Origin: Escherichia phage LF82-23 | Reading direction: 5' to 3' (one strand) | Sequence record: PV660458 | DNA length: 42,378 bases | The notes under the pieces: model-generated | Databases searched by the model: none | Seen by the model: only the letters and a program-made list of their open reading frames with translations | What the model was told of the DNA's origin: nothing | Shown here: piece after piece, positions 3,792 through 42,368 of the stretch | Position numbering within the stretch: the first letter of the stretch is position 1 | How the letters are laid out: each line of letters begins with the position of its first letter | Program-made: the position numbers and the translations under genes

Positions 3792-4327
3792 TGACTAACT
3801 TTGAAATCTGTATGCGGTTCACCGGGCTGGCAGAAGGTGGTTACACCAAGCTGCCCGGCGATACCGGAGGGGAAACGAATCATGGAATTAGCGACGCTCG
3901 TGATGGCAAACTGGATGGCCGAGCTTGTGGTGTCCCTACTGGGCTTGGCGGCACTATTTGTGTACCTATCAAGCAGCTCACCAAAGCACAAGCCGAAGCA
4001 ATCTATCGACGGGATTACTACACCCCCATCCGAGGTGACGAACTTCACCCTGCGATTGCATGTGCCGTGTTTGACTACGGTGTCAACTCCGGTGTCTCCC
4101 GTGCGGCGAAAGCTCTACAGCGGGTATGCGGCGTTGCACAAGACGGGATTGTTGGCCCTGCTACCGTGGCAGCAGCCAAACGTCTGGAACCTCACTCCGC
4201 AGCAGCAGCCATCTGTGACCTTCGTATTGCGTTCCTAAAGGCTTCTACAGCCCCGACAGTGGTTCGCTATAGGGATGCCTTGGTTGCTCGTGCAAAACGC
4301 TGTAGCGCTTACTGTGCGACGCTGTAG
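3791..4327 (+). CDS. endolysin, glycoside hydrolase family 108-like N-terminal domain plus C-terminal peptidoglycan-binding-like domain
   Basis: N-terminal motif FTGLAEGGYTKLPGDTGGETNHGI matches the GH108 EGGY...D.GG.T..GI signature; C-terminal region resembles PG_binding_3-type domains; last gene before the non-coding terminus. Confidence 0.8.
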   Translation: MTNFEICMRFTGLAEGGYTKLPGDTGGETNHGISDARDGKLDGRACGVPTGLGGTICVPIKQLTKAQAEAIYRRDYYTPIRGDELHPAIACAVFDYGVNSGVSRAAKALQRVCGVAQDGIVGPATVAAAKRLEPHSAAAAICDLRIAFLKASTAPTVVRYRDALVARAKRCSAYCATL

Positions 4328-4544
4328 GGGTATCCGAAAGCTGATGCAATGAACAGGCCGTGGGTGCAATACCCCGGCTTGAAAATTGACTATTTGTACG
4401 TGCCCCTCCCTCGACCCAAATGACCGCGCGTGCCCCCATAGCGTGTGCGCGGTTTAGCCTCGCGACGTGCGCGATAATTGCTCGCGTGCGCTGCGCGGCG
4501 CGTCGAAAGGATTGCCTGCGTGCGGTATAGCTCGTGCGTGTCGC

Positions 4545-4900
4545 GTTTCATCGTCTGCCGTGTGGCGTGCTGTGCGCTGTCCTGCTGGCTGTGCTGTGCG
4601 GTGCTGTCCTATGGGGACGCTCTGCGCTGGCTGGCTGGTGCTGTGGTAGCGGTGCGGTCGGTCGGGTATCTGTCTCTTTTCGTGGCGCGGCGTGGTGCTG
4701 TGTGGTGGCGGTGGTGCTGCGTGGTGCTGTCCTGTCTGCTGGTCTACTGTCTGCGCCTGCCAGCTCTGCGCGTCGTGCTCTGCTACCTGCTGTTACTGTC
4801 CTACTGCCTTCACTGTCTGCCGTCTGTCAGTCCTACGGTCTGCCATCCGTCATCCGTTCGGCGCTCGCTTGTTTCGGCTGCGCCGCGCTCGCTCTGCGTA
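4545..4900. other. A-depleted, GT- then CT-rich low-complexity non-coding block
   Basis: Roughly 5% A on the + strand by eye over about 350 nt (e.g. 4681-4740 contains no A); degenerate short repeats (GCTGTG, GGTGCTG, CTGTC); ORFs here exist only because stop codons need A. Confidence 0.7.
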
Positions 4901-5060
4901 TCTAGCGATACTATATCACTATAGACACTTTCATAATTATCTATTGATATCAGTAACTTATAACCTATCTGATAACGGTATTCTGACCAGTGTTATGATT
5001 ATCTAATCAAACTTTAATCCTAATGATTACAGTAACTTATCACTTTTCTTGAAAATAATA
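4901..5060. repeat. AT-rich block with clustered short GATA/TATC-type palindromes (candidate terminus/ori/packaging region)
   Basis: TTGATATCA, TATCTGATA, TGATTATCTAATCA, CAGTAACTTAT x2 seen directly; lies between the A-depleted block and the early promoters. Confidence 0.5.
4919..4934 (-). promoter_or_regulatory. inverted copy of conserved 16-mer ATGAAAGTGTCTATAG (candidate phage RNAP promoter element)
   Basis: Reverse complement of 4919-4934 is identical to 25618-25633; extended match about 27 nt with one mismatch. Confidence 0.35.
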
Positions 5061-5061
5061 C

Positions 5062-5091
5062 TTGCAAACTGTTTTGGTTTTGTGCTGTAAT
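5062..5091 (+). promoter_or_regulatory. sigma70-type early promoter P1
   Basis: TTGCAA (5062-5067), 18-nt spacer, TGTAAT (5086-5091) preceded by TGn extended -10. Confidence 0.6.
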
Positions 5092-5165
5092 TCATCACGT
5101 CGAAAGGCACTAGCCCAGTAGACAAGATTGAACGGTAACACTGCTCTTTAACAATCTGGAGTGTA

Positions 5166-5194
5166 TTGACAAGGCAAGCTCACTATGCTGTAAT
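5166..5194 (+). promoter_or_regulatory. sigma70-type early promoter P2
   Basis: TTGACA (5166-5171), 17-nt spacer, TGTAAT (5189-5194) with TGc extended -10. Confidence 0.7.
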
Positions 5195-5302
5195 GCTTCC
5201 ACGTCAGCCAGCAAGCTAAACAGTCATTGATAAAGACGTTAAAACACACGCAGGCAAACTGGTACGGGTTATTCATCTCAGAACGGGCGCTGAATAAAAC
5301 GG

Positions 5303-5331
5303 TTGACAGGATGAAACGAGTATGCTGTAAT
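5303..5331 (+). promoter_or_regulatory. sigma70-type early promoter P3
   Basis: TTGACA (5303-5308), 17-nt spacer, TGTAAT (5326-5331) with TGc extended -10. Confidence 0.7.
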
Positions 5332-5382
5332 ACGCTCCAGATTGACAGGGCAGCAAGCCAGTCAGTCAGAAGTAAAAAGTAG

Positions 5383-5411
5383 TTGACACGCTGAATACGA
5401 TGTGATGTAAT
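5383..5411 (+). promoter_or_regulatory. sigma70-type early promoter P4
   Basis: TTGACA (5383-5388), 17-nt spacer, TGTAAT (5406-5411) with TGa extended -10. Confidence 0.7.
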
Positions 5412-5843
5412 CAGCACCGAGTTGAAAGGTTGCAAAACAACCTGCTCTGAGTGAACGTAAACAGGCCACGTAGTGTCTCGGCCTCATGGGTATCCGGCGC
5501 AGCTAGGAACTGGTGAGGGCACCGCCGAAAGGCAATAGGGGTAGCGCCCGGTGCGATGGGAACGGAGAAGCGCGATAGACGCAGCGCAGTATCAGCACAA
5601 TCCCGAACGTCTTATAAGGCGCGGAGTGAAGCGGGTAGGTAGGCAAGCTGGTAACGGTGAGCCGGACTGCTGGAGGACTCCTGAGAGTGGATGCAGACAA
5701 TATCCACGGCGCGAAATGGGCGGGGCGATTTTTCAGGGTAGTGAATCCGACAAGCCAATCAATGCCAACGAGTGCAGACTGTACGGCGCGTCACAATGGG
5801 TTCACTATCCACCTGAAAATAGCCAACAACTGGAGAAATTAAT

Positions 5844-6233
5844 ATGTACCGTATCTATGCAAGCGCATATCGTCAGGGCAACGCTGAGTCAGTCAATCTG
5901 GCGCTTCATTGCAAGGCACTGCGAACGGTGCAGGACATGTTCGGAGTGGTTCCGGTCACACTGACAGGCAAGTTCGACAATGCGTATGAGTTAAGCATGG
6001 TCTTCCCTGTCGATGGAATCTACGAAATCCGACAGGCTGTTAAGCTGTTTTGTAAAGCCTTCGAACAGGACTGCATCATGGTAGTGACCAAAGACGACGA
6101 TGCAATCTTCATGGACTCACCGTATCCGGGTAAGCCTGCTGGCAAGCTGGTCAGCAAGACTAACGAGGAAATGGAAGCCGGGCAGCATACCGCTTGGACT
6201 TACGATGGTGAGCAATTTTGGGTAGTGGAGTAA
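5844..6233 (+). CDS. hypothetical early protein (129 aa)
   Basis: First ORF after promoter array and leader; GGAG 9 nt upstream of ATG. Confidence 0.6.
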   Translation: MYRIYASAYRQGNAESVNLALHCKALRTVQDMFGVVPVTLTGKFDNAYELSMVFPVDGIYEIRQAVKLFCKAFEQDCIMVVTKDDDAIFMDSPYPGKPAGKLVSKTNEEMEAGQHTAWTYDGEQFWVVE

Positions 6234-7007: not shown

Positions 7008-7045
7008 AGCCAGTGTCACGGCGCTGGCTTTATGGCAATTCTGCC
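7008..7045 (+). promoter_or_regulatory. conserved early intergenic unit 1: hairpin (AGCCAG/CTGGCT) + GGCA-N4-TGCC element
   Basis: Stem 7008-7013/7024-7029; GGCAATTCTGCC 7034-7045; 34 nt from GGCA to ATG of next gene. Confidence 0.5.
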
Positions 7046-7067
7046 CCAACCATTTAGGAGCTTCACC

Positions 7068-7349
7068 ATGTCTATCAAAACTGTAACTGCTTTCATCACC
7101 AAACGCGACGGCGAACTGTACGGCTTCGCTGTGTCTCTGAACGAAGGCCAGTACCTGCACCATGTCCGTGAAGACGGCGAGCCGACTGAGGCTGCTGGTA
7201 TTCTGGAAACGCTGGCTGGTATCCCGCTGCCGCATGAGTTCATCATCATGCTGGCTGAGCAGGACGAAGACGAGCTGAAAGCGCGTCACGGTAGCGGCCT
7301 GACGCTGGAAGAAATCGGCACCTTCGAAGCCGAGGTTGACGACGAGTAA
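7068..7349 (+). CDS. small acidic early protein (93 aa)
   Basis: AGGAG 9 nt upstream; ORF-track start 7032 lies inside the conserved upstream element, so the downstream ATG was chosen; acidic C-terminus (EAEVDDE). Confidence 0.6.
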   Translation: MSIKTVTAFITKRDGELYGFAVSLNEGQYLHHVREDGEPTEAAGILETLAGIPLPHEFIIMLAEQDEDELKARHGSGLTLEEIGTFEAEVDDE

Positions 7350-7360
7350 GCGTTGTCCTG

Positions 7361-7398
7361 CTGCGCCTTCAACGAGGGCGCAGCGTGGCAATAATGCC
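7361..7398 (+). promoter_or_regulatory. conserved early intergenic unit 2: hairpin (CTGCGCC/GGCGCAG) + GGCA-N4-TGCC element
   Basis: Stem 7361-7367/7377-7383; GGCAATAATGCC 7387-7398; 34 nt to ATG. Confidence 0.5.
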
Positions 7399-7420
7399 TT
7401 ACTCAATCGAGGGTTTTACT

Positions 7421-7762
7421 ATGACTATCAAACTGGTTCTGCTGTCCAACATCGCTGCCTCTGCTTTCGGTGAAGGCGTTCCGGCTGACGCTATCACCAG
7501 CGAGTGGGTTGGCTTCACTCAGGACGGTGAGAACTACCTGATTGCAGGCCGCAACCGCGACGGCGACAGCGCTGAGCAAATCGTTGCGCACTTCGACAAC
7601 GACAGCAACTTCGCAGAGTTCCGCGAGTCCGGCTTCCCGCTGGAGCTGTTTGCTCTGATGGGCGGTCACTCCTTCCTCAGCACTGAAACGCTGGGTGAGG
7701 GCGTGGTTATCAACGTGCTCAAAGAGTACGACGCGGAAGACGATATCGACTTCAACGCGTGA
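7421..7762 (+). CDS. small acidic early protein (113 aa)
   Basis: Conserved RBS context GAGGGTTTTACTATG; acidic C-terminus. Confidence 0.6.
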   Translation: MTIKLVLLSNIAASAFGEGVPADAITSEWVGFTQDGENYLIAGRNRDGDSAEQIVAHFDNDSNFAEFRESGFPLELFALMGGHSFLSTETLGEGVVINVLKEYDAEDDIDFNA

Positions 7763-7769
7763 TACCTTA

Positions 7770-7806
7770 CTGCCTCGTTGCGACGGGGCAGTGCGGCAAT
7801 CATGCC
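7770..7806 (+). promoter_or_regulatory. conserved early intergenic unit 3: hairpin (CTGCC/GGCAG) + GGCA-N4-TGCC element
   Basis: Stem 7770-7774/7787-7791; GGCAATCATGCC 7795-7806; 33 nt to ATG. Confidence 0.5.
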
Positions 7807-7827
7807 CTAACCTTTTGAGGATTCAAT

Positions 7828-8379: not shown

Positions 8380-8418
8380 CTGCCCTTGCATAGTCGAGGG
8401 CAGTAGGGCAATCATGCC
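8380..8418 (+). promoter_or_regulatory. conserved early intergenic unit 4: hairpin (CTGCCC/GGGCAG) + GGCA-N4-TGCC element
   Basis: Stem 8380-8385/8398-8403; GGCAATCATGCC 8407-8418; 34 nt to ATG. Confidence 0.5.
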
Positions 8419-8440
8419 ACAACTAACTGAGGGTTTTACC

Positions 8441-8725
8441 ATGGCTAAAGTAACTGCATACTACTCCGCTTCCCAAAAAGATATCGTTGCAATCGTGGGC
8501 GATGGCTTCGAAGAAGGCAACATGGCGCTGTGTATCTCTGGCTGCCACGCTGTACCGGAACTGAACACGGTTGAAGATGCGAAGGCGGCGCTGCCGTACC
8601 TCGAATCTGATATCAGCCGCATGGGTGACTTGGCGTTCCTGCTGAACGGCGGCACCTTGAACGAAGGCGCGGCTGAGAACATGCCTGCTCAGGGCTACGA
8701 AGCGATTGGTAGCTTCGAGGTCTAA
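8441..8725 (+). CDS. small acidic early protein (94 aa)
   Basis: Conserved RBS context TGAGGGTTTTACCATG; ORF-track start 8369 rejected as upstream extension. Confidence 0.6.
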   Translation: MAKVTAYYSASQKDIVAIVGDGFEEGNMALCISGCHAVPELNTVEDAKAALPYLESDISRMGDLAFLLNGGTLNEGAAENMPAQGYEAIGSFEV

Positions 8726-10040: not shown

Positions 10041-10325
10041 ATGGTACTGGCATCTGAATCAATCATCGAACAAGCTGGCGCAATTCGTGAGGCTGAGCAT
10101 CTGCGTGGGGTAGCCGCAACGCTCGGTCACTGTGCTGGTAACGGCGGCCTGCGTGGGCACTCGGTCGGCGGCGTATTTCCCTGCGTGATATTCTCGCGGG
10201 GCAACCCACATGAACACCTCGACTGGTGCTTCCTCGCACCGAACGGCGACGAGTTCGACGGCTTCATCAGTTACGAAGATGCGTATGCAGCCGCGCAACA
10301 ATGGCTGGAACAAAGAGAGGTGTGA
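10041..10325 (+). CDS. hypothetical early protein (94 aa)
   Basis: ORF with G-rich RBS; unknown function. Confidence 0.55.
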   Translation: MVLASESIIEQAGAIREAEHLRGVAATLGHCAGNGGLRGHSVGGVFPCVIFSRGNPHEHLDWCFLAPNGDEFDGFISYEDAYAAAQQWLEQREV

Positions 10326-10327
10326 GT

Positions 10328-10627
10328 ATGAGTAAGTGGAGTGAGGGCGTAGCCCGGTTACAGCGTTGGTTAGTGGATGCGTTCGGCACACCGCCAGCCC
10401 CGTCGCATGATGACTCGCCGTTCCAGTACGTCGAGAAGAAGACGGAGGAACTTAAGCTGGGTGATTACGTGGTAGCATACGGCGGGTACATCCAGCGCAT
10501 CGGTGCCGTTGAATATGATGGCAGCCGACTGGTCGTTACCAAACTGGGGCATGGCCCCGAACGTGAATGGCAGGCGTACGAAGCTGACGAGTTCACTGTG
10601 CGCATTATGAAAGAGGCAAACAAATGA
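10328..10627 (+). CDS. hypothetical early protein (99 aa)
   Basis: GAGAGGTG upstream of ATG 10328; ORF-track start 10226 rejected. Confidence 0.55.
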   Translation: MSKWSEGVARLQRWLVDAFGTPPAPSHDDSPFQYVEKKTEELKLGDYVVAYGGYIQRIGAVEYDGSRLVVTKLGHGPEREWQAYEADEFTVRIMKEANK

Positions 10628-11326: not shown

Positions 11327-11342
11327 ATGAAGGTGTCTATAT
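11327..11342 (+). promoter_or_regulatory. conserved motif ATGAAGGTGTCTATAT (candidate phage RNAP promoter), preceded by hairpin 11301-11325
   Basis: 15/16 identity with the 16-mer at 25618; 21 nt upstream of the first middle gene start. Confidence 0.35.
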
Positions 11343-11363
11343 TGGCCAACGTGAGGATGAAAT

Positions 11364-11567
11364 ATGTTCAGAGTTATATTGTTGTTCCTGTTCCTCGTAT
11401 TAATATGGGGTGCTATCTGGTGCGTGCTGGCAATGACTGTGCTGGTGCCTGCCATCGGTGAATCAGCAACGGGTGGGCTGGGTACAATACTCGGTATGCT
11501 GGTGGGCTGGGGCTTAATGTCGTTCAGCCTTGACGTAGGCCAGAGCCGGAGGTGGATTAAATGGTAA
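11364..11567 (+). CDS. small membrane protein (67 aa, two hydrophobic helices)
   Basis: GAGGATGA upstream of ATG; sequence dominated by two hydrophobic stretches. Confidence 0.55.
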   Translation: MFRVILLFLFLVLIWGAIWCVLAMTVLVPAIGESATGGLGTILGMLVGWGLMSFSLDVGQSRRWIKW

Positions 11568-23156: not shown

Positions 23157-25589
23157 GTGGATTTACTTGCAGAGCAGATTCGACTTGAAGAAGAAGCGCG
23201 AGCCAGACACCGCGAGGGCTGGCTGGATAATATCAAAGAGGCGATGGCCAGTGGCCGCGCCGGGTCGGTGCCGTTGCTCCAGCGTATGATGGTTGAGGCT
23301 TATCCTCTGGTCGAAGCTGCGATGCAAGAAACCCTGAACGAAACGACCCGTGGGTATGGTGCGCAGTACCGGACGTACATGCGTGAGATTGGCACCAAAG
23401 CGTGTGCCTCTCTCGCACTGAGCATGGCGGTGTCCGGTGCTGCGTCGGAGCAGGCGGTACTCAGCCTGCTCAAGAGCATGGGCAAGGCACTGATGGCTGA
23501 GGTGGTGTACCTCCGGGCGAAGCAGACCGGGCCACAGCAGGCGGCGTACATGGAGCGCGTTAAGCAGGATGTGAAGAAGTCTCGCTCGAAGTCAGCGAAC
23601 CACGTCTACAACAAAGCGCGTGCGTCGGCGGCGAACGTTGGGGTGGAGATTGATGTGCTGCCGCAGCGTGCGCTGATTACCATTGGCAAGCTGATGATGA
23701 AGTGCGTCGAGCCAACTGGTCTGGTGTCCACGATTCGCGTCGGCGGCAACCAGCGGCAGCGCGGTACGGCACACTTTGCACTGCATGAGGATGTGCTGGC
23801 TACGATGAACGACTGGCTGGACATGCCGCGTGCTGATGGCATGTGCTGCCCACCGCTGATTATCCCGCCGAAGCAGATTGCGCCGAACGGTCGCAGCGGT
23901 ATGTGGCATTCGGATGGGCAGGCGGCGATGTACCGGGTCATGAGTCGCATGAACCACAAAGGGTATCGTGCGTTGAACGTTGACCCGACCCCCGTTATAG
24001 AGCCGTGTATGATGCTCAGCAGCGTTCCGTACCGAGTTAACCCAATGGTACTGGAGTTCCTGCGAACGAACCGTACAGGCGTTATGGGGCTGCCTGTGCC
24101 GCCTCGTGAGCCTACACTTCCGTTTACCATCCCCGCTGGTGTGAGCTTCGCGCAGTACATCAGCAAGTTCCCACCAGAGATGCAGCAGCAGATGGACGCT
24201 GAGGCTCATGAGTACAAGGTGAAGACTCGCTTGTATTACAATGAGTTGCGTAAGTTCACATCGCAGATGCTGGCGCTGAACGGTGCAGTCAAAGAAGCAG
24301 ACAGGTACGCCCAGTATGATAGGATTTATCTCCCGACTTACGCCGATACGCGGGGCCGAATTTATTATTCTTCGACCCTTAACCCTCAGTCTATCGACGC
24401 GGTGCGAGCGCTGCTCGAACTTGCTGAACCAGTGGCTCTCGGAAGTGAGGGGCTGTTCTGGCTCAAGGTTCATGTTGCGAATTGCTTCGGCTACGACGCA
24501 ACCGACTTCGATGACCGGGCGGCGTGGACGGACAAAACACTCCCCCGACTACGTGAGGCGTGCCGTCTTCCAGAGGCATTTGATTCGTTCTGGTCAGAGG
24601 CCGATAGCCCTATCTCAGCGTGGGCTGCATCTGTTGAACTCATTCGAGCTATCGACAGCGGAAGTCCTGAGACTTATCCCTGCCGAGTGGTTACGCAATG
24701 GGATGCTACATGTTCAGGTCTCCAACACCTCAGCGCAATGCTACGAGATGAAGTTGGGGGTGCTGCTGTCAATCTTATCAATAGCGTGGGGCGAAAGGCA
24801 GACATATATCTCAAGACGGCAGCAGCGGCGATGCAGGCTCTTGAAGATAGTGAAGCGCAGTCACCGACGCAGATGGGTACGTGGCTTGTTTCAATCGGCA
24901 TTGTACGGGCGATGGCTAAGAAACCAGTGATGACGTACGTGTACGGGGCAACCCGGCACGGGATGGTGGACTACTACTGCCTGTACCTGCGTGAGAACCG
25001 GGTCAAGCTACCGGACGGCAAGAGCCTGCTGGAGTGTGCGCAGTTCATCGCAGAGTTCATGTGGAATGCAATCCCTCGCGTTGTGCCGAAGGCGGCAGAG
25101 CTGATGGCGTGGTTGCAGGCTATCGCGGTGGAGGCGGCAGCCAACGGCGAGTACGTGGAAATCATTGCACCGTCAGGGTTGCGGGTGGTTAACCTGTACC
25201 AAGCTAGCAAGGAGACGATGCTCAACAACATCAACCTCATGGGTATCCACAGCATTAAGCTGCGCGAGTATCTGGACAAGCCGGACGGCAGGAAGTGTGC
25301 CGCTGCGATTGCTCCGAATTTCGTACACGCCATGGATGCCAGCCACATGATGAAGGTGCTGTGGGAGATGTGGAATAACGGGGTGTACATGGTATCCATC
25401 CACGATTCGTTCGGGGTGGCGGCTGCACATGCCGGGCTACTTCACAAGGTCATTCGTGAAAAGTTCGTGCAGATGTACGAGCAACATGACCCAATTCAAC
25501 AACTTGCTGTACGATACAATGCTGTTGCACCTGAACGTGGCAATCTGGATATCCAGCTTGTGAAACAATCAAGCAAGTTTTTCTGCTAA
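23157..25589 (+). CDS. single-subunit DNA-directed RNA polymerase (T7-like)
   Basis: [25 protein letters not shown] and VSIHDSFG match T7 RNAP catalytic segments ([20 protein letters not shown], HDSFG); GTG start with AAGGAG 5 nt upstream. Confidence 0.9.
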   Translation: [810 protein letters not shown]

Positions 25590-25593
25590 TAAA

Positions 25594-25645
25594 TAGTGAT
25601 ATGTATCATTGACTTAAATGAAAGTGTCTATAGTGATATGTATCA
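25594..25645 (+). promoter_or_regulatory. repeat cluster downstream of RNAP gene: TAGTGATATGTATCA x2 flanking conserved 16-mer ATGAAAGTGTCTATAG (candidate phage promoter / origin)
   Basis: Direct repeats at 25594-25608 and 25631-25645; 16-mer at 25618-25633; location corresponds to the promoter/origin region after gene 1 in T7. Confidence 0.4.
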
Positions 25646-25886: not shown

Positions 25887-26306
25887 ATGAAAGTGTCTAC
25901 TATGGGAAATACATCACACACGACGATGCCACTCGACATTCGCCGTGCTGTGGCCGAAGGCATTCAAGCTGAGCGGCCATGGTCAGACCTATCTCCCGAT
26001 GTGATTGTTGACAGCATGTACGAGGCCACCGCCTCCGGTTGTGTTGACGTTTACATCACTGACGATGACGGCAGCCTCATGGCTGTTGCTCACATCGGCA
26101 GGTTATTCGATATTCATGTGGGTGAGATGGTGGTCGTTATGGCCTCATACGTCTGGCCCCAGTACAGAAACCGTGGAGTGATGCGTGCCATCCTCCGTGT
26201 ACTCAAAGACGTGGCCCGTTCTGCGGGTGTACGTTGGTGCGGTTACTCCCATATGGTGCGGCCTTACGTTCAGGAGTACCGCTTCATTGATTTGGAGAAA
26301 CCGTAA
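25887..26306 (+). CDS. hypothetical protein (139 aa); weak acyltransferase-like resemblance
   Basis: Start overlaps third copy of the conserved motif (ATGAAAGTGTCTACTA); segment YRNRGVMRAILRVL only loosely GNAT-like; start uncertain. Confidence 0.4.
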   Translation: MKVSTMGNTSHTTMPLDIRRAVAEGIQAERPWSDLSPDVIVDSMYEATASGCVDVYITDDDGSLMAVAHIGRLFDIHVGEMVVVMASYVWPQYRNRGVMRAILRVLKDVARSAGVRWCGYSHMVRPYVQEYRFIDLEKP

Positions 26307-39984: not shown

Positions 39985-42368
39985 TGGCGAACAGCTATAA
40001 CGCTTACGTGGCAAACGGAACGCAGACCGCGTTCCTTGTCACCTTTGAGCAACGCGTGTTCACTGAGATTCAGGTGTACCTCAACTCCGAACTCCAGACG
40101 AGCGGGTACACCTACAACTCTGTGACCAAACAGATTATCTTCGACACCGCCCCGCTCGCCGGGGTGATTGTCCGACTCCAACGTTACACCTCTGAGGTTC
40201 TACTGAACAAGTTCGGCCAAGACGCTGCCTTCACTGGGCAGAACCTTGACGAGAACTTCGAGCAGATTCTGTTCAAGGCCGAGGAAACTCAGGAAGCATG
40301 GCTCGCGCCGCTTGACCGCGCCGTCCGTGTTCCAAACTCTGAGGTCTCTATCAACGCATTACCGAACGTCGCTGGCCGCCGCAACAAGGCATTGGGCTTT
40401 GACAGCAATGGCCAGCCGTTCATGATTCCTCTGGTCGATATCCCGGACTCCGCTCTGGCGATTGCTCTGGCAATGGCTGACGGCGGTAAGTGGATTGGTA
40501 CTCTTGGTGGTGGCACGTTCCTCGACCGTCAGGATACCGTATGCCTGTCCGAGTTCACCAACAATACCGGGTACGCTTCTACCGCCGCTGCGGTGCAGGC
40601 TTGCTTCGATTATGCCAAGGCCAACAACAAAGTTGTTGATGCCCGTGGCTGGGAAGGTACTGTCAGCTCCACTGTCCTGATGGACGGTATTGAGGTTGTC
40701 GGTGGTACGTGGAATGGTACAGCAGACATTCGACTGCTGAACGCCACGTTCCGCAACTTCTCTGCGTCAAAGGTTCGTGTCTGCTACTGGGGCGGCAATG
40801 TACGCATTGCTGACTACGAGTTCACCGACCACCCATCGGCATCGAAAGTTGCCAGTATTCTGTTCCAAGGCAACATCGCCGGGGGCAGCTACGTCATTGA
40901 GAACGGCGTACACCGCAATGGCTACTTCGGTATTCTCCAGCAAGGTACTGGCGAAACCATTGACAACGGTGTGATTCGCAACATCGCGCTCATGGATATG
41001 GCTGGTGACGGTATTGAGATGAACGTAATCAACAAGCACTATGATGGTGGCCTGTCGATTGAGAACATCTACCTCGAAAATATCAACGGTATCAACCCAA
41101 CCTCCAACCCATCCTTCGTATCCAACTGGGGTATCGGGATTGGTCTGGCTGGTCAAGGGCCGTTTGGCTGGGATGCTGCTGAAACCCAATACGCGAAGAA
41201 CATCACAGTCCGTGGTGTTCATGCTCCGCGCGGCGTGCGACAAGTCATCCACTTCGAGGTGGCCAAGAACTGTTCAGTGTATGACGTACACGCCAACCCT
41301 GACCTGACTGTTTCCAACGGTACGGGCCTGACCGCCGCTGGTGTTATCACCTACGGCTGCAAGGACATGGTTATTGACGGGGTGTACGGTGAGCCTATCG
41401 TCGGCACCACAGGCACTGACCCGGCTGCTGTTCGTCTGGTGATGTGTGAGTGGGGTGCTAACCAAGCGGGTGCAGGTGGTGTGCCGGGTGCATCTAACCC
41501 GTCATTCAACATGACGCTGCGCAACATCTACACCAAGACCGGGCGTGTCTACGCTGGTGTTGGCTCCGATGATGTGAACACCAACGTATACCACCTTGAG
41601 AACATCCACTGCTACCGTCTGAGCCTCTTTGGTGTGGCAACCCTCCTGAACATGACCAACGTGACGGGTGTTGACTTCGACTGCGTAGGCGATGACTCCA
41701 GCGGCGGTACGTCCTCTAATGGTGTGTACCCGCGACGCAAGACCTGCCTGAACATGGTGAACGTGAACTTCTATGGGCCGGGCATGACAGAGGGTGCGCT
41801 GTACAGTAAGGCTCGCTACACGGATATCAGTACTCTGAACTCCAACGTGCGTGCTATTCCGTACTCCAACATCCAAGGTAACGTTGGCGTTATCCTGTCT
41901 CCGGTCAACCGTATGTACACGCTACCAAACGACCTTGCGACACTGACTGGCGGGGAGTTCCCAACTGGTAGGGAGTTCTGCGAGGGTACGGTACTGTTCA
42001 AGACCGATGGCTCCGGTGGCAACTTCATAGTTACCAAGTTCGGTGCCTACATTCCCAATGACGGCAACAACTTCAAGGTGCGTGCTGCTGCCGCTGGCCA
42101 GACTTATCTGGAGCAGAACCTGACTCCGGCTGGTACTCAGGCTTCTACCTCGTGGCTGTACCATAAGCCAATCTCTGCTGGTACTCGACTGAACATTCCG
42201 GGTGCCGGGCCGGGCGGCGATACGCTCACTGTGACGGTGGTGCGTGCTCCGTATCAGGTGGACAACAACATCGGAAACCCGGTGCGCATCGACATTACCC
42301 CGGCCATTGTGACGGCAATCCCTGCGGGAACGCAGCTCGCCGCTACCTACCCGGTGGCCTACATCTAA
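39984..42368 (+). CDS. tail fibre/tailspike with T7 gp17-like N-terminal anchor and beta-helix (polysaccharide depolymerase-like) domain
   Basis: N-terminus AFLVTFEQRVFTEIQVYLN...FTGQNLDENFEQI follows the T7 gp17 adaptor pattern; central region shows periodic N/G/I/V-rich repeats typical of right-handed beta-helix (pectate-lyase-like) tailspikes. Confidence 0.7.
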   Translation: MANSYNAYVANGTQTAFLVTFEQRVFTEIQVYLNSELQTSGYTYNSVTKQIIFDTAPLAGVIVRLQRYTSEVLLNKFGQDAAFTGQNLDENFEQILFKAEETQEAWLAPLDRAVRVPNSEVSINALPNVAGRRNKALGFDSNGQPFMIPLVDIPDSALAIALAMADGGKWIGTLGGGTFLDRQDTVCLSEFTNNTGYASTAAAVQACFDYAKANNKVVDARGWEGTVSSTVLMDGIEVVGGTWNGTADIRLLNATFRNFSASKVRVCYWGGNVRIADYEFTDHPSASKVASILFQGNIAGGSYVIENGVHRNGYFGILQQGTGETIDNGVIRNIALMDMAGDGIEMNVINKHYDGGLSIENIYLENINGINPTSNPSFVSNWGIGIGLAGQGPFGWDAAETQYAKNITVRGVHAPRGVRQVIHFEVAKNCSVYDVHANPDLTVSNGTGLTAAGVITYGCKDMVIDGVYGEPIVGTTGTDPAAVRLVMCEWGANQAGAGGVPGASNPSFNMTLRNIYTKTGRVYAGVGSDDVNTNVYHLENIHCYRLSLFGVATLLNMTNVTGVDFDCVGDDSSGGTSSNGVYPRRKTCLNMVNVNFYGPGMTEGALYSKARYTDISTLNSNVRAIPYSNIQGNVGVILSPVNRMYTLPNDLATLTGGEFPTGREFCEGTVLFKTDGSGGNFIVTKFGAYIPNDGNNFKVRAAAAGQTYLEQNLTPAGTQASTSWLYHKPISAGTRLNIPGAGPGGDTLTVTVVRAPYQVDNNIGNPVRIDITPAIVTAIPAGTQLAATYPVAYI

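Follow-up and report, generated by a model that had tools for sequence, protein, structure and literature searches.

An adenine-depleted block at the probable terminal repeat and concatemer junction of the bonnellvirus LF82-23

A 356-nt block that is almost free of adenine on the + strand (4545-4900) of Escherichia phage LF82-23 (record PV660458; the window analysed here is the whole 42,378-nt sequence) is very probably the non-coding region of the terminal repeat and concatemer junction at the left end of the chromosome (genus Bonnellvirus, T7 supergroup), as judged by comparison with related sequences. The block is best regarded as a concatemer-junction region of a kind usual in the T7 supergroup, its compositional signature being one that has been little described; no published description of the A-depletion, of the leftward promoter copy beside it or of bonnellvirus termini was found in open-access text. 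As an explanation of the region as a whole, the combination of a junction region with a pause element and a leftward promoter is favoured with moderate confidence. An initial annotation, made from the sequence alone, had noted that no gene explains the block, had suggested that it could be part of the terminal repeat or a packaging signal and had remarked on the unusual composition of its transcripts, all of which stands, whereas its suggestion of a Chi-like array does not.

Composition of the A-depleted block

The block contains 16 A, 105 C, 123 G and 112 T, corresponding to an A content of 4.5% compared with 22.9% genome-wide (binomial P for 16 or fewer A = 7e-22). The lowest A content of any 356-nt window in the genome is 4.2% (the window starting at 4530), and outside 3800-5300 the minimum for windows of this length is 16.3%. 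Furthermore, the three longest A-free runs of the genome (77, 60 and 47 nt) all lie inside the block, the best elsewhere being 30 nt. The A-depleted block of about 350 nt described in the initial annotation is therefore real, and a sliding analysis of base composition places it far outside the range of the genome. The change from GT-rich to CT-rich sequence along the block is likewise borne out, with G at 42-44% and C at 21-25% across 4545-4735, followed by C at 37% and G at 25.5% across 4736-4900. Short repeats of the kind that had been named are also present (GTGCTG seven times, TGCTGT seven times, GGTGCTG five times and CTGTC nine times), together with a 10-nt tandem unit, GTGGTGCTGT, at 4692-4730 (TRF) and a 5/10-nt periodicity (z of 3-5). 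As single-stranded DNA, the block is predicted to be unstructured (z of about +5).

The terminal repeat and the left end of the chromosome

The published assembly is a circularised SPAdes contig, and the LF82-23 sequence is thus circularly permuted and holds one collapsed copy of the direct terminal repeat (DTR). The closest database records are all bonnellviruses, and homology to one of these, J8-65, the record of which carries a 259-bp repeat_region at 1-259 and 40723-40981, places the collapsed copy at about 4411-4657, with limits that derive from this one annotated relative. The left end is set at TCGACCC, and the boundary between CCTCCC and TCGACCC is invariant in all 13 bonnellviruses aligned; the right end falls in a variable stretch and is placed by homology with a margin of about 10 nt (4657-4667). 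The repeat segment is 64-65% identical to that of the J8-65 clade and lies between the stop codon of the endolysin gene (4327) and the early host-type promoters (5062-5411). The A-depleted block comprises the last ~110 nt of this repeat, which align with the J8-65 DTR, and the spacer directly to the right, so that its attribution to a terminal-repeat region is upheld. Its earlier placement at a presumed genome terminus is right in substance, with the probable left end at 4411 in a permuted sequence. The record ends of glasur, usur and BHUENT7 were considered as clues to the physical ends and were rejected as uninformative, since they fall at differing positions.

Several short conserved boxes accompany the repeat. 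Just to the left of it, the box CCCCGGCTTGAAAATTG (4372-4388, + strand) is invariant in the intergenic regions of all 13 bonnellviruses compared, a related CCTAAAAATTGA occupies the equivalent position in LIMEzero, and the box is a candidate terminase or end-recognition sequence. About 22 nt inside the inferred left end lies CCCCCATAG (4433-4441, + strand), a hallmark of T7-supergroup left ends that is found 20-30 nt from the left end in eight reference phages (T7, T3, SP6, K1-5, KP34, LKA1, phiKMV and J8-65). Within the repeat, the island GGACGCTCTGCGCTGGCTG (4615-4633, + strand) contains GGACGC and CTGCGCTGG, both of which are invariant in 13 sequences with variable flanks. A search of IMG/VR with the left-end box CCTCCCTCGACNCNAANGA returned the LIMEzero, J8-65 and Lidtsur copies and one A-poor contig of ~42.7 kb, and thus no new diversity; the other matches, in which no A-depletion follows the box, are taken to be chance.

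The junction element

Near the right boundary of the repeat, the sequence TATCTGTCTCTTTT (4667-4680, + strand), which includes TATCTGTC and a T-run, is a candidate class II-like pause or termination signal. This element is unique in the genome, and the form TATCT(G/A)TCT(C/T)TTTT is kept in all 13 bonnellviruses inside hypervariable flanks, the bare 8-mer HATCTGTY being present in the genome at chance frequency. The class II signal consists of ATCTGTT in the non-template strand and a U-run, with a natural copy at the T7 concatemer junction, and no base of the 7-mer can reportedly be changed without loss of termination by T7 RNA polymerase. The strict heptamer is absent from the element, which has ATCTGTC in LF82-23 (six of seven positions) and ATCTATC in the J8-65 clade (five of seven); the cognate polymerase differs from that of T7. 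The context of the element, T-ATCTGTC-TC-TTTT, does fit the class II rule, in which A, C or T comes before the motif and a U-run after it.

ATCTGTT starts at the first nucleotide past the annotated DTR in T7 (161) and T3 (232), at the last base of the DTR in SP6 (174) and at position 234 in K1-5, the record of which has no DTR annotation, and the corresponding motif starts 13 nt past the annotated DTR end in J8-65 and ~11 nt past the inferred end in LF82-23. An intrinsic hairpin terminator at the T-run was rejected because no stem is supported in nine relatives (the consensus fold of the nine sequences upstream of the T-run, at -5.8 kcal/mol with an unfavourable covariation term, contains no conserved hairpin, and its stem ends more than 10 nt short of the T-run) and because a terminator scan of 4200-5900 found no terminator-like hairpin. 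By analogy with the class II signal, the junction element could quite plausibly act as a pause site, although the case falls a little short of an even one.

The heptamer array and the pyrimidine-rich spacer

Five GGTGCTG heptamers on the + strand stand astride the repeat boundary (starts at 4600, 4637, 4694, 4713 and 4723; cluster 4600-4729). Of the 16 copies on the + strand of the genome, these five fall here, where 0.58 would be expected (P<0.002). Relative to the junction element, the two upstream copies (-67 and -30) do not vary within the close clade, and those downstream, at +17, 27, 37, 46, 55 and 65, vary in number among relatives in steps of ~10 nt. To the right of the array, the spacer at 4736-4900 (+ strand) is pyrimidine-rich (68% C+T), is 95% identical among close relatives and contains islands such as CCAGCTCTGCGCGTC (4760-4774). 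For a leftward RNA on this spacer, the calculated hybrid-minus-duplex energy is among the lowest, and hence most favourable, 0.5-2% of genome windows. A few windows in other parts of the genome, read rightward, favour R-loops more than the block does.

A leftward promoter-like element beside the block

Just beyond the block, 13 nt past its right edge, lies a 22-nt element on the - strand (4913-4934) that reads leftward ATGAAAGTGTCTATAGTGATAT, with a predicted start near 4919. Over all 22 nt it matches 25618-25639 in inverted orientation, a coincidence for which 6.5e-5 pairs would be expected, and it is one of four copies of the element in the genome, those at 11327, 25618 and 25887 being on the + strand. 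The copies co-vary within each phage, with four variants across the genus (GTGTCTA, GTGACTA, GCTACTA and GTAACTG), and phage promoters annotated as 'putative' in LIMEzero occupy sites equivalent to the element copies, the leftward LIMEzero copy being at 637-656. On the basis of this co-variation and of the putative LIMEzero annotation, the element is a candidate promoter of the phage single-subunit RNA polymerase, the gene for which is at 23157-25589. A T7-like, rightward phiOL reading of the same site, as TATCACTATAG, was rejected: it is in the opposite reading that the other three copies face rightward and precede genes, and the conservation between copies also spans a part that is the upstream binding region only in that opposite reading. 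The earlier remark that a transcript through the block would lack A if rightward and U if leftward is correct, and it matters more now that a leftward copy of the candidate promoter has been located so close to the block.

Further to the right, an AT-rich region (4925-5060; 27% G+C over 4901-5060) contains a 30-nt direct repeat (4941-4970 and 5020-5049) and is followed on the + strand by four sigma-70-type early promoters (5062-5091, 5166-5194, 5303-5331 and 5383-5411), each with TTGACA or TTGCAA, a spacing of 14-15 nt and TGnTGTAAT. These were read by eye and by regular expression, a strict consensus scan having omitted all four, in which the -10 hexamer has G at position 2. They are conserved in J8-65 and sit upstream of the first gene, which encodes a SAMase (5844).

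Conservation among relatives and comparison with other phages

The initial annotation had allowed for the block being a variable, non-conserved spacer. It is instead a mosaic, in which hypervariable GT-rich arrays are combined with invariant islands and the composition is conserved across genera. The A content of the block is 4-8.5% in all 13 bonnellviruses despite an identity of only 56-65% to the J8-65 clade, and A-poor left ends also occur, with no sequence similarity, in LIMEzero, phiKMV and LKA1. Strong A-depletion was seen in four of the nine left ends sampled and a weaker form in three more, which suggests selection at the level of composition that is invisible to methods based on sequence similarity. 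Polymorphism among relatives gives weak evidence for ongoing selection against A: the deficit of A/G polymorphism is significant only in the GT-rich part, which aligns poorly (2 of 19, P=0.0025), and the CT-rich part shows none (3 of 11). Most indels among relatives are of 1 or 9-11 nt.

The arrangement of the region resembles that of T7 and T3, in which the last late gene is followed by a short terminal repeat, an ATCTGT-type motif at the right edge of the repeat and heptamer arrays astride that edge. A phage-type promoter comes ~150-260 nt further on, and after it strong host promoters (A1-A3) and a first gene with an anti-restriction function. T7/T3 and LF82-23 have the left-end CCCCCATAG box in common, and T7 is also strand-asymmetric beside its repeat, being A-poor at nt 100-150 and G-poor at nt 150-400. 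However, the details differ. The motif is ATCTGTC, ~10 nt past the homology-inferred repeat end, in LF82-23 and ATCTGTT in T7/T3; the heptamer is GGTGCTG in LF82-23 and of the CCTAAAG type in T7; and the A-depletion is far longer and deeper in LF82-23 (356 nt, 4.5%) than in T7/T3. In addition, the phage-type promoter beside the block is leftward in LF82-23, whereas phiOL of T7/T3 is rightward and the leftward promoter of these phages is the host promoter A0.

Among the phiKMV-like phages (phiKMV, LKA1, LIMEzero and J8-65), the A-poor first 400-800 nt correspond to the annotated repeat and the sequence to its right, the A-poor extent being ~800 nt in phiKMV (1-9 A per 50 nt), ~450 nt in LKA1 and ~150-650 in LIMEzero. 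In the last of these, G-rich sequence likewise gives way to C-rich sequence, a CTACCTCTTTTCG element is present, and the right edge of the block carries a leftward copy of the annotated phage promoter. Beyond Bonnellvirus, no sequence similarity is seen except in short boxes, and in phiKMV, LKA1 and KP34 the repeat is followed by T-rich GCCTCTTTTGC-type sequence rather than by ATCTGT. SP6 and K1-5 have a GT-rich tract (GTGTGTGGGCGTGGGC in SP6, GTGTGAGGGCGTGGGC in K1-5) leading into TATCTGTTC at the repeat boundary, with more copies of TATCTATTGCT downstream, similar to TATCTATCT of J8-65; their A-depletion is only moderate (3-11 A per 50 nt), and inspection of the first 900 nt of SP6 by eye revealed no leftward copy of a promoter.

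Alternative explanations for the A-depletion

The idea that the block is an array of Chi-like motifs attenuating RecBCD at DNA ends is very improbable. Its likeness to E. coli Chi is one of GT-rich composition only, confined to the GT-rich half, and the block contains no copy of GCTGGTGG, as had been noted from the outset. One octamer within a single mismatch of Chi (GCTGGTGC, 4634; seven of eight positions) was found, compared with 1.05 +/- 1.0 in composition-matched shuffles; it lies inside the repeat, and RecBCD entering the right genome end would thus meet it early, but the recurring unit of the block is GGTGCTG and not Chi. RecBCD recognises a Chi site on the plus strand when it approaches from the right, and such a site therefore cannot protect the left end; the GT-rich motifs, all on the + strand, are in the wrong orientation for that first-entering end, and most of the GT-rich array is outside the repeat and hence absent from the right end. 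The A-poor composition is shared by phiKMV and LKA1, which are Pseudomonas phages, and the 11 exact Chi octamers of the LF82-23 genome all lie elsewhere, in coding sequence, where codon usage largely explains them (6.0 +/- 2.0 expected). A gene for a small Cys/Leu/Val-rich protein, as called in several GenBank relatives, is scarcely credible. Long open reading frames do exist in all three + frames (4478-4924, 4534-4905 and 4692-5006), and hypothetical proteins have been called here in the HHU8, forsur, Kc261, Lidtsur and ROV85 records. However, an A-poor strand is open in every frame because all three stop codons contain A, and the reading frames called over the block are artefacts of such a stop-codon-free strand. 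The block contains no ATG (wherever one of its 16 A precedes a T, the next base is C and not G), the candidate coding region overlaps the terminal repeat, and the reading frame is not preserved among relatives, in which indel lengths, at 66:22:20 for remainders of 1, 2 and 0 modulo 3, are not enriched for multiples of three. Searches of Pfam and PHROG with the translations over the block gave no matches, in agreement with the initial view that no gene explains the block, and an Rfam covariance-model scan of 4200-6000 returned only a chance-level match (E=0.57; 19.8 bits, where the gathering score is 95).

Two further explanations address the composition itself, and both are unlikely. According to one, the first-entering DNA is kept clear of restriction and modification targets until the SAMase, product of the first gene, has been made. 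An A-free strand cannot hold Type I sites because these need adenine on both strands, and it also excludes any palindrome with an A/T pair; the block lies within the first ~500 bp of the leading end, and it is only in the part of the genome injected early that Type I motifs matter in Autographiviridae (PMC12455610). Site avoidance is extreme elsewhere in the genome (no GATC and no CCWGG, compared with ~160 and ~113 expected from base composition), no EcoKI site is present in 4411-5843, and the block has no 6-bp palindromes and 12 of four bp, of which 11 are GC-only and the exception is one AGCT. On the other hand, the equally exposed leader at 4901-5843 is normal in composition, is denser in 6-bp palindromes than the genome is on average and contains an EcoBI site (5312), and 13% of ordinary windows likewise lack 6-bp palindromes. 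Palindrome or restriction-site avoidance was rejected as the cause, since the block cannot be distinguished from these ordinary windows and the remaining leader is not depleted. Part of the block, moreover, recurs at the right end, the last to enter the cell, and protection from restriction leaves unexplained the conserved islands, the heptamer phasing, the G-rich to C-rich order and the flanking leftward promoter. According to the other explanation, to which a similarly low probability is assigned, the block is a functionless degenerate microsatellite produced by replication slippage, its composition reflecting A-free founding units or mutational bias. This would accord with the GT-rich parts varying more than any other stretch of the intergenic region (even among close relatives, identity is 78-82% and 8-26% of positions are gapped), with the indel units of 9-11 nt and the 5/10-nt periodicity, and with the absence of a significant A/G polymorphism deficit in the CT-rich half. 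It does not account for the persistence of A-depletion between clades that are 56-65% identical here, and in LIMEzero, phiKMV and LKA1 in the absence of detectable similarity, nor for the invariant islands and the two heptamers at fixed spacing, and the CT-rich half is as well conserved as the functional flanks (95%). Deamination of an exposed strand would be expected to yield a G+T-rich strand and cannot explain the C+T-rich half.

A proposed role in concatemer maturation

In the favoured reading, that of a concatemer-junction region with a pause element and a leftward promoter, late rightward transcription in replicating concatemers would, by analogy with T7, meet no hairpin terminator past the endolysin gene. 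It would instead pause or terminate at the junction element, marking the repeat boundary at which terminase matures the right end, and the GGTGCTG array, as the counterpart of the T7 heptamer arrays beside the repeat, may bind maturation proteins.

The steps proposed for the opposite direction are more speculative. The leftward promoter would drive a U-poor, purine-rich, unstructured and untranslatable RNA across the block. Such an RNA lacks U because its template lacks A, and would therefore have almost none of the U needed for start codons, stop codons and terminator U-runs and almost no secondary structure (the leftward RNA folds to -28 kcal/mol, against a predicted -80 kcal/mol). Being purine-rich over a pyrimidine-rich template, with which its hybrid is predicted to be unusually stable, it would form a persistent R-loop reaching the terminal-repeat boundary. 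This R-loop might cause the junction to open. Alternatively, it might serve as a primer for leftward DNA synthesis through the repeat, by which the latter would be duplicated as concatemers mature, or for replication of the left end. A role of the leftward transcript in priming or R-loop formation is, on present evidence, rather doubtful. In the favoured reading as a whole, selection would have acted on the composition of a cis-acting region, and the A-depletion would carry no sequence-specific signal of its own.

Implications

The analysis locates a collapsed terminal repeat and a probable maturation site in a published genome that is circularly permuted, flags wrong 'hypothetical protein' calls over the region in several GenBank relatives and replaces the speculation about Chi with a concrete and testable architecture. 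To our knowledge, no full answer has been reached on how the terminal repeat is duplicated during concatemer cutting in T7-like phages. A candidate leftward phage promoter that faces the repeat over a U-free, R-loop-prone template, and that is conserved in Bonnellvirus and LIMEzero, gives this question a specific experiment and, if the proposal is true, would represent a transcription-primed answer to terminal-repeat duplication that is common to Bonnellvirus and LIMEzero, and perhaps to all phiKMV-like phages with A-poor left ends.

Composition and position of the A-depleted block

The + strand between 4545 and 4900 contains 16 A, 105 C, 123 G and 112 T, an A fraction of 4.5% compared with 22.9% for the window (binomial P = 7e-22), and a sliding-window check places this outside the genome range, the minimum among 356-nt windows away from the block's neighbourhood being 16.3%. 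The window's three longest A-free runs (77, 60 and 47 nt) all lie in the block, where the AT skew falls to -0.72. As the initial annotation described, a G+T-rich half (4545-4735; 42-44% G, 21-25% C) precedes a C+T-rich half (4736-4900; 37% C, 25.5% G), and the short repeats it named are real, with GGTGCTG present five times, GTGCTG and TGCTGT seven times each and CTGTC nine times, together with a 10-nt tandem unit at 4692-4730 (TRF) and a 5/10-nt periodicity (z 3-5) that is also seen in relatives.

Sequence matches to the region come solely from bonnellviruses (Autographiviridae, J8-65-like), at 86-93% identity. According to its genome announcement, the Bonnellvirus LF82-23 (PV660458) is a SPAdes assembly that was made circular by removing the contig overlap. 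The window is thus circularly permuted and carries a single, collapsed copy of the terminal repeat. Every gene is on the + strand, and the block sits in 1.5 kb of non-coding sequence that runs from the endolysin stop (4327) to the start of the anti-restriction SAMase gene (5844), the first early gene. In an alignment of this intergenic region from 13 bonnellviruses, the left boundary between CCTCCC and TCGACCC does not vary, which by homology puts the LF82-23 left end at 4411. In J8-65, 259-bp repeats are annotated at the two termini (1-259 and 40723-40981); their right boundary aligns with ~4657 of the window, a position uncertain by ~10 nt because it falls inside a variable stretch. The right edge of the repeat therefore falls within the block, and the proposal that it is part of the terminal repeat holds, by homology to J8-65, for its first ~110 nt, the remaining ~245 nt belonging to unique left-end sequence. 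A CCCCCATAG box at 4433-4441, 22 nt inside the inferred left end, has counterparts 20-30 nt from the left ends of T7, T3, SP6, K1-5, KP34, LKA1, phiKMV and J8-65. Outside the repeat, 23 nt to the left of the inferred left end, CCCCGGCTTGAAAATTG (4372-4388) shows no change across the 13 bonnellviruses while its flanks vary, and a related box is present in LIMEzero.

Coding potential and conservation

The non-coding nature of the block is well established. Because every stop codon contains A, a strand poor in A stays open in each of its three frames, which explains the ORFs at 4478-4924, 4534-4905 and 4692-5006, as well as the 'hypothetical proteins' annotated over the A-poor block in HHU8 (XMR00743.1; L011 1391-1939), forsur (forsur_28; L013 1265-1780), Kc261 (QQM15444.1; L003 1518-2057), Lidtsur (QBZ71559.1; L015 1716-2123) and ROV85 (ROV85_21 and ROV85_22; L014 1225-1791); these GenBank calls are very probably false genes. 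A small-protein gene was rejected on this stop-free composition, on indel lengths free of multiple-of-three bias (residues 1:2:0 = 66:22:20) and on the lack of any match of the ORF translations to Pfam or PHROGs, in line with the earlier statement that no gene accounts for the block. An Rfam search of the region likewise returned no match.

Conservation of the block among the 13 relatives is mosaic. Nowhere in the gap is variation greater than in the GT-rich parts, which show 78-82% identity and 8-26% gapped positions even among close relatives and indels chiefly of 1 nt or 9-11 nt, as would suit the variable, non-conserved spacer against which the block was to be judged. However, the CT-rich half retains 95% identity in close relatives (only 62% to the J8-65 clade), and three islands, GGACGC/CTGCGCTGG (4615-4633), TATCTGTCTCTTTT (4667-4680) and CCAGCTC..CGCGTC (4760-4774), are invariant or nearly so. 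A content is also kept low, at 4.1-6.8% for phages of the close clade and at 7-8.5% for the J8-65/smaasur/Lidtsur clade, and polymorphism data weakly favour ongoing selection against A. The GGTGCTG heptamers form a well-supported array (5 copies in 130 nt compared with 0.58 expected, P<0.002), in which two copies keep a constant spacing (-67 and -30) upstream from the TATCTGTC element and 2-3 copies lie downstream, at +17, 27, 37, 46, 55 or 65, a spacing of one helical turn with a copy number that varies among phages.

An A-poor left end is firmly a family trait. It extends over the first ~800 nt of phiKMV (1-9 A per 50 nt; annotated repeat 414 bp), ~450 nt of LKA1 (298 bp) and ~400 nt of J8-65, and over ~150-650 of LIMEzero (repeat not annotated), G-rich then C-rich as in LF82-23. 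The left ends of KP34 (216 bp), SP6 and K1-5 are moderately A-poor, T7 is A-poor only at nt 100-150, the following 250 nt being G-poor instead, and T3 has no A-depletion. Apart from short boxes, these left ends share no sequence similarity with the window, and maintenance of the composition therefore does not depend on the sequence.

A class II-like element near the probable repeat boundary

The class II pause/termination signal of T7 RNA polymerase is hairpin-independent and consists of ATCTGTT on the non-template strand, with A/C/T before and a U-run after; the natural T7 copy lies in the concatemer junction, at its right end. ATCTGTT directly follows the annotated repeat in T7 (starting at 161; repeat 160) and T3 (232; repeat 231), and begins at base 174 in SP6 and at 234 in K1-5, the records of the latter two being without repeat annotation. 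We take the SP6 repeat to be 174 bp, in which case the motif starts at its last base. In LF82-23, T-ATCTGTC-TC-TTTT starts ~10 nt past the inferred repeat end, and in J8-65, ATCTATC-TTTTTT starts 13 nt past the annotated one.

This junction 14-mer (4667-4680) occurs once in the window and is solidly conserved (13/13 phages) within hypervariable surroundings. It agrees with the strict class II 7-mer at 6/7 positions, short of the definition, and its bare 8-mer occurs at chance frequency in the genome; it is therefore termed class II-like in position and form rather than a member of the class. No conserved hairpin was found upstream of it, and no hairpin terminator from the endolysin gene to the first early gene. 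In T7 work by Lyakhov et al. (1997/1998) and Zhang and Studier (1995/2004), polymerase mutants that do not pause at the junction are reportedly defective in concatemer processing and packaging, and by analogy a polymerase pause at this element may mark the site for end maturation.

A leftward promoter-like copy beside the block

Just past the block's right edge, the window carries a leftward-facing (- strand) 22-nt element at 4913-4934 (ATATCACTATAGACACTTTCAT), and its presence there is secure. Read rightward as WWATGAAAGTGTCTATAGTGATA (= ATGAAAGTGTCTATAGTGATAT), it has four occurrences in the window, the others being on the + strand directly after the RNA polymerase gene (25618-25639), at 11327-11348, in the order hairpin, element, ribosome-binding site and ATG at 11364, and at 25887-25908, overlapping a start codon. 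The left-end copy is a perfect inverted copy of 25618-25639 (6.5e-5 such pairs expected by chance). Copies within a phage share one variant, which differs from phage to phage (GTGTCTA in LF82-23, GTGACTA in forsur, GCTACTA in Kc261, GTAACTG or GTATCTG in J8-65 and Lidtsur), as expected if a promoter co-evolves with its polymerase, and the first codons of the gene at 25887 vary together with the element. The LIMEzero record places 'putative phage specific promoters' at the two equivalent sites, one ahead of the primase gene, behind a terminator, and the other immediately behind the polymerase gene. The element is thus probably a phage RNA polymerase promoter, its left-end copy facing left. A motif scan of LIMEzero gave one minus-strand copy (637-656), at the right edge of its A-poor block, so that two genera have an A-poor block between the repeat boundary and a leftward promoter-like copy. 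In contrast, T7 and T3 have the rightward phiOL at the comparable position, and their leftward promoter, in or beside the repeat, is the host promoter A0. The AT-rich region behind the leftward copy contains a 30-nt direct repeat (CTAWTGATWWCAGTAACTTAT, 80% identity; 4941-4970 and 5020-5049), and a phage promoter combined with an AT-rich region is reminiscent of T7 replication origins.

As single-stranded DNA the block folds at -16.5 kcal/mol per 200 nt, compared with -36 predicted from G+C (z ~ +5). Its rightward transcript folds normally because of G-U pairs; the leftward transcript is nearly structure-free (-28 versus -80 kcal/mol predicted, z = 6.7) and would have almost no U, a base found in every start codon (AUG, GUG, UUG), stop codon and terminator U-run. 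Across 4680-4899 this RNA would be purine-rich on a pyrimidine-rich template, and the nearest-neighbour difference between RNA:DNA hybrid and DNA duplex is among the most favourable 0.5-2% when all windows and both directions are ranked together, the genome's most favourable leftward hybrid window starting at 4707. Speculatively, leftward U-free transcription could open or prime the junction.

Further into the early region, four strong host-type promoters (5062-5411), kept in J8-65, share the unusual form TTGACA (or TTGCAA), 14-15 nt, TGnTGTAAT, and were missed by a strict sigma-70 scan on account of the G in the second position of their -10 hexamer. The ~400 nt from there to the SAMase start (5431-5843) are the best-conserved part of the gap (90% identity to the J8-65 clade versus 56-85% elsewhere), have no match in Rfam and could represent a structured leader, a site of processing or an unannotated small gene. 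Direct repeats of 38-48 nt with the core GGCAATNATGCC ... GAGG ... ATG precede several early genes (7025-7074, 7378-7427, 7786-7823, 8398-8447 and 10287-10334); this repeat family may be a common translation-initiation or processing element.

Alternative explanations and significance

The speculation that a Chi-like array protects the DNA ends is not supported, as the block has one near-match compared with 1.05 expected, in the wrong orientation for the left end. The genuine octamers, GCTGGTGG, lie in genes rather than in the block, 11 on the + strand (42, 1431, 2699, 11498, 12978, 15861, 29015, 30955, 31805, 35174 and 39844) and 0 on the - strand of the window. Synonymous-codon shuffling gives 6.0 +/- 2.0 (P = 0.013 for at least 11), so that codon usage leaves a modest excess; the + strand orientation suits RecBCD entry from the right end.

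It is improbable that the composition reflects a restriction-proof leader: the genome is indeed without any GATC (Dam) or CCWGG (Dcm/EcoRII) site (0 in 42,378 bp versus ~160 and ~113 expected from base composition), an avoidance known in kind from T7-like coliphages, but the remainder of the leader shows no depletion, and the block shares its absence of 6-bp palindromes with 13% of ordinary windows. A spacer shaped by neutral slippage is likewise unlikely, since the hypervariable arrays that it would explain stand beside invariant islands, fixed heptamers, a conserved CT-rich half and a composition recurring across genera, all of which fit it poorly.

The block is the non-coding left-end and concatemer-junction region of the T7 supergroup in its bonnellvirus form, and the finding is real but mostly ordinary. 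No description of the compositional signature or of the leftward promoter was found in the open-access literature, and it is in these two features that the residual interest of the block lies.
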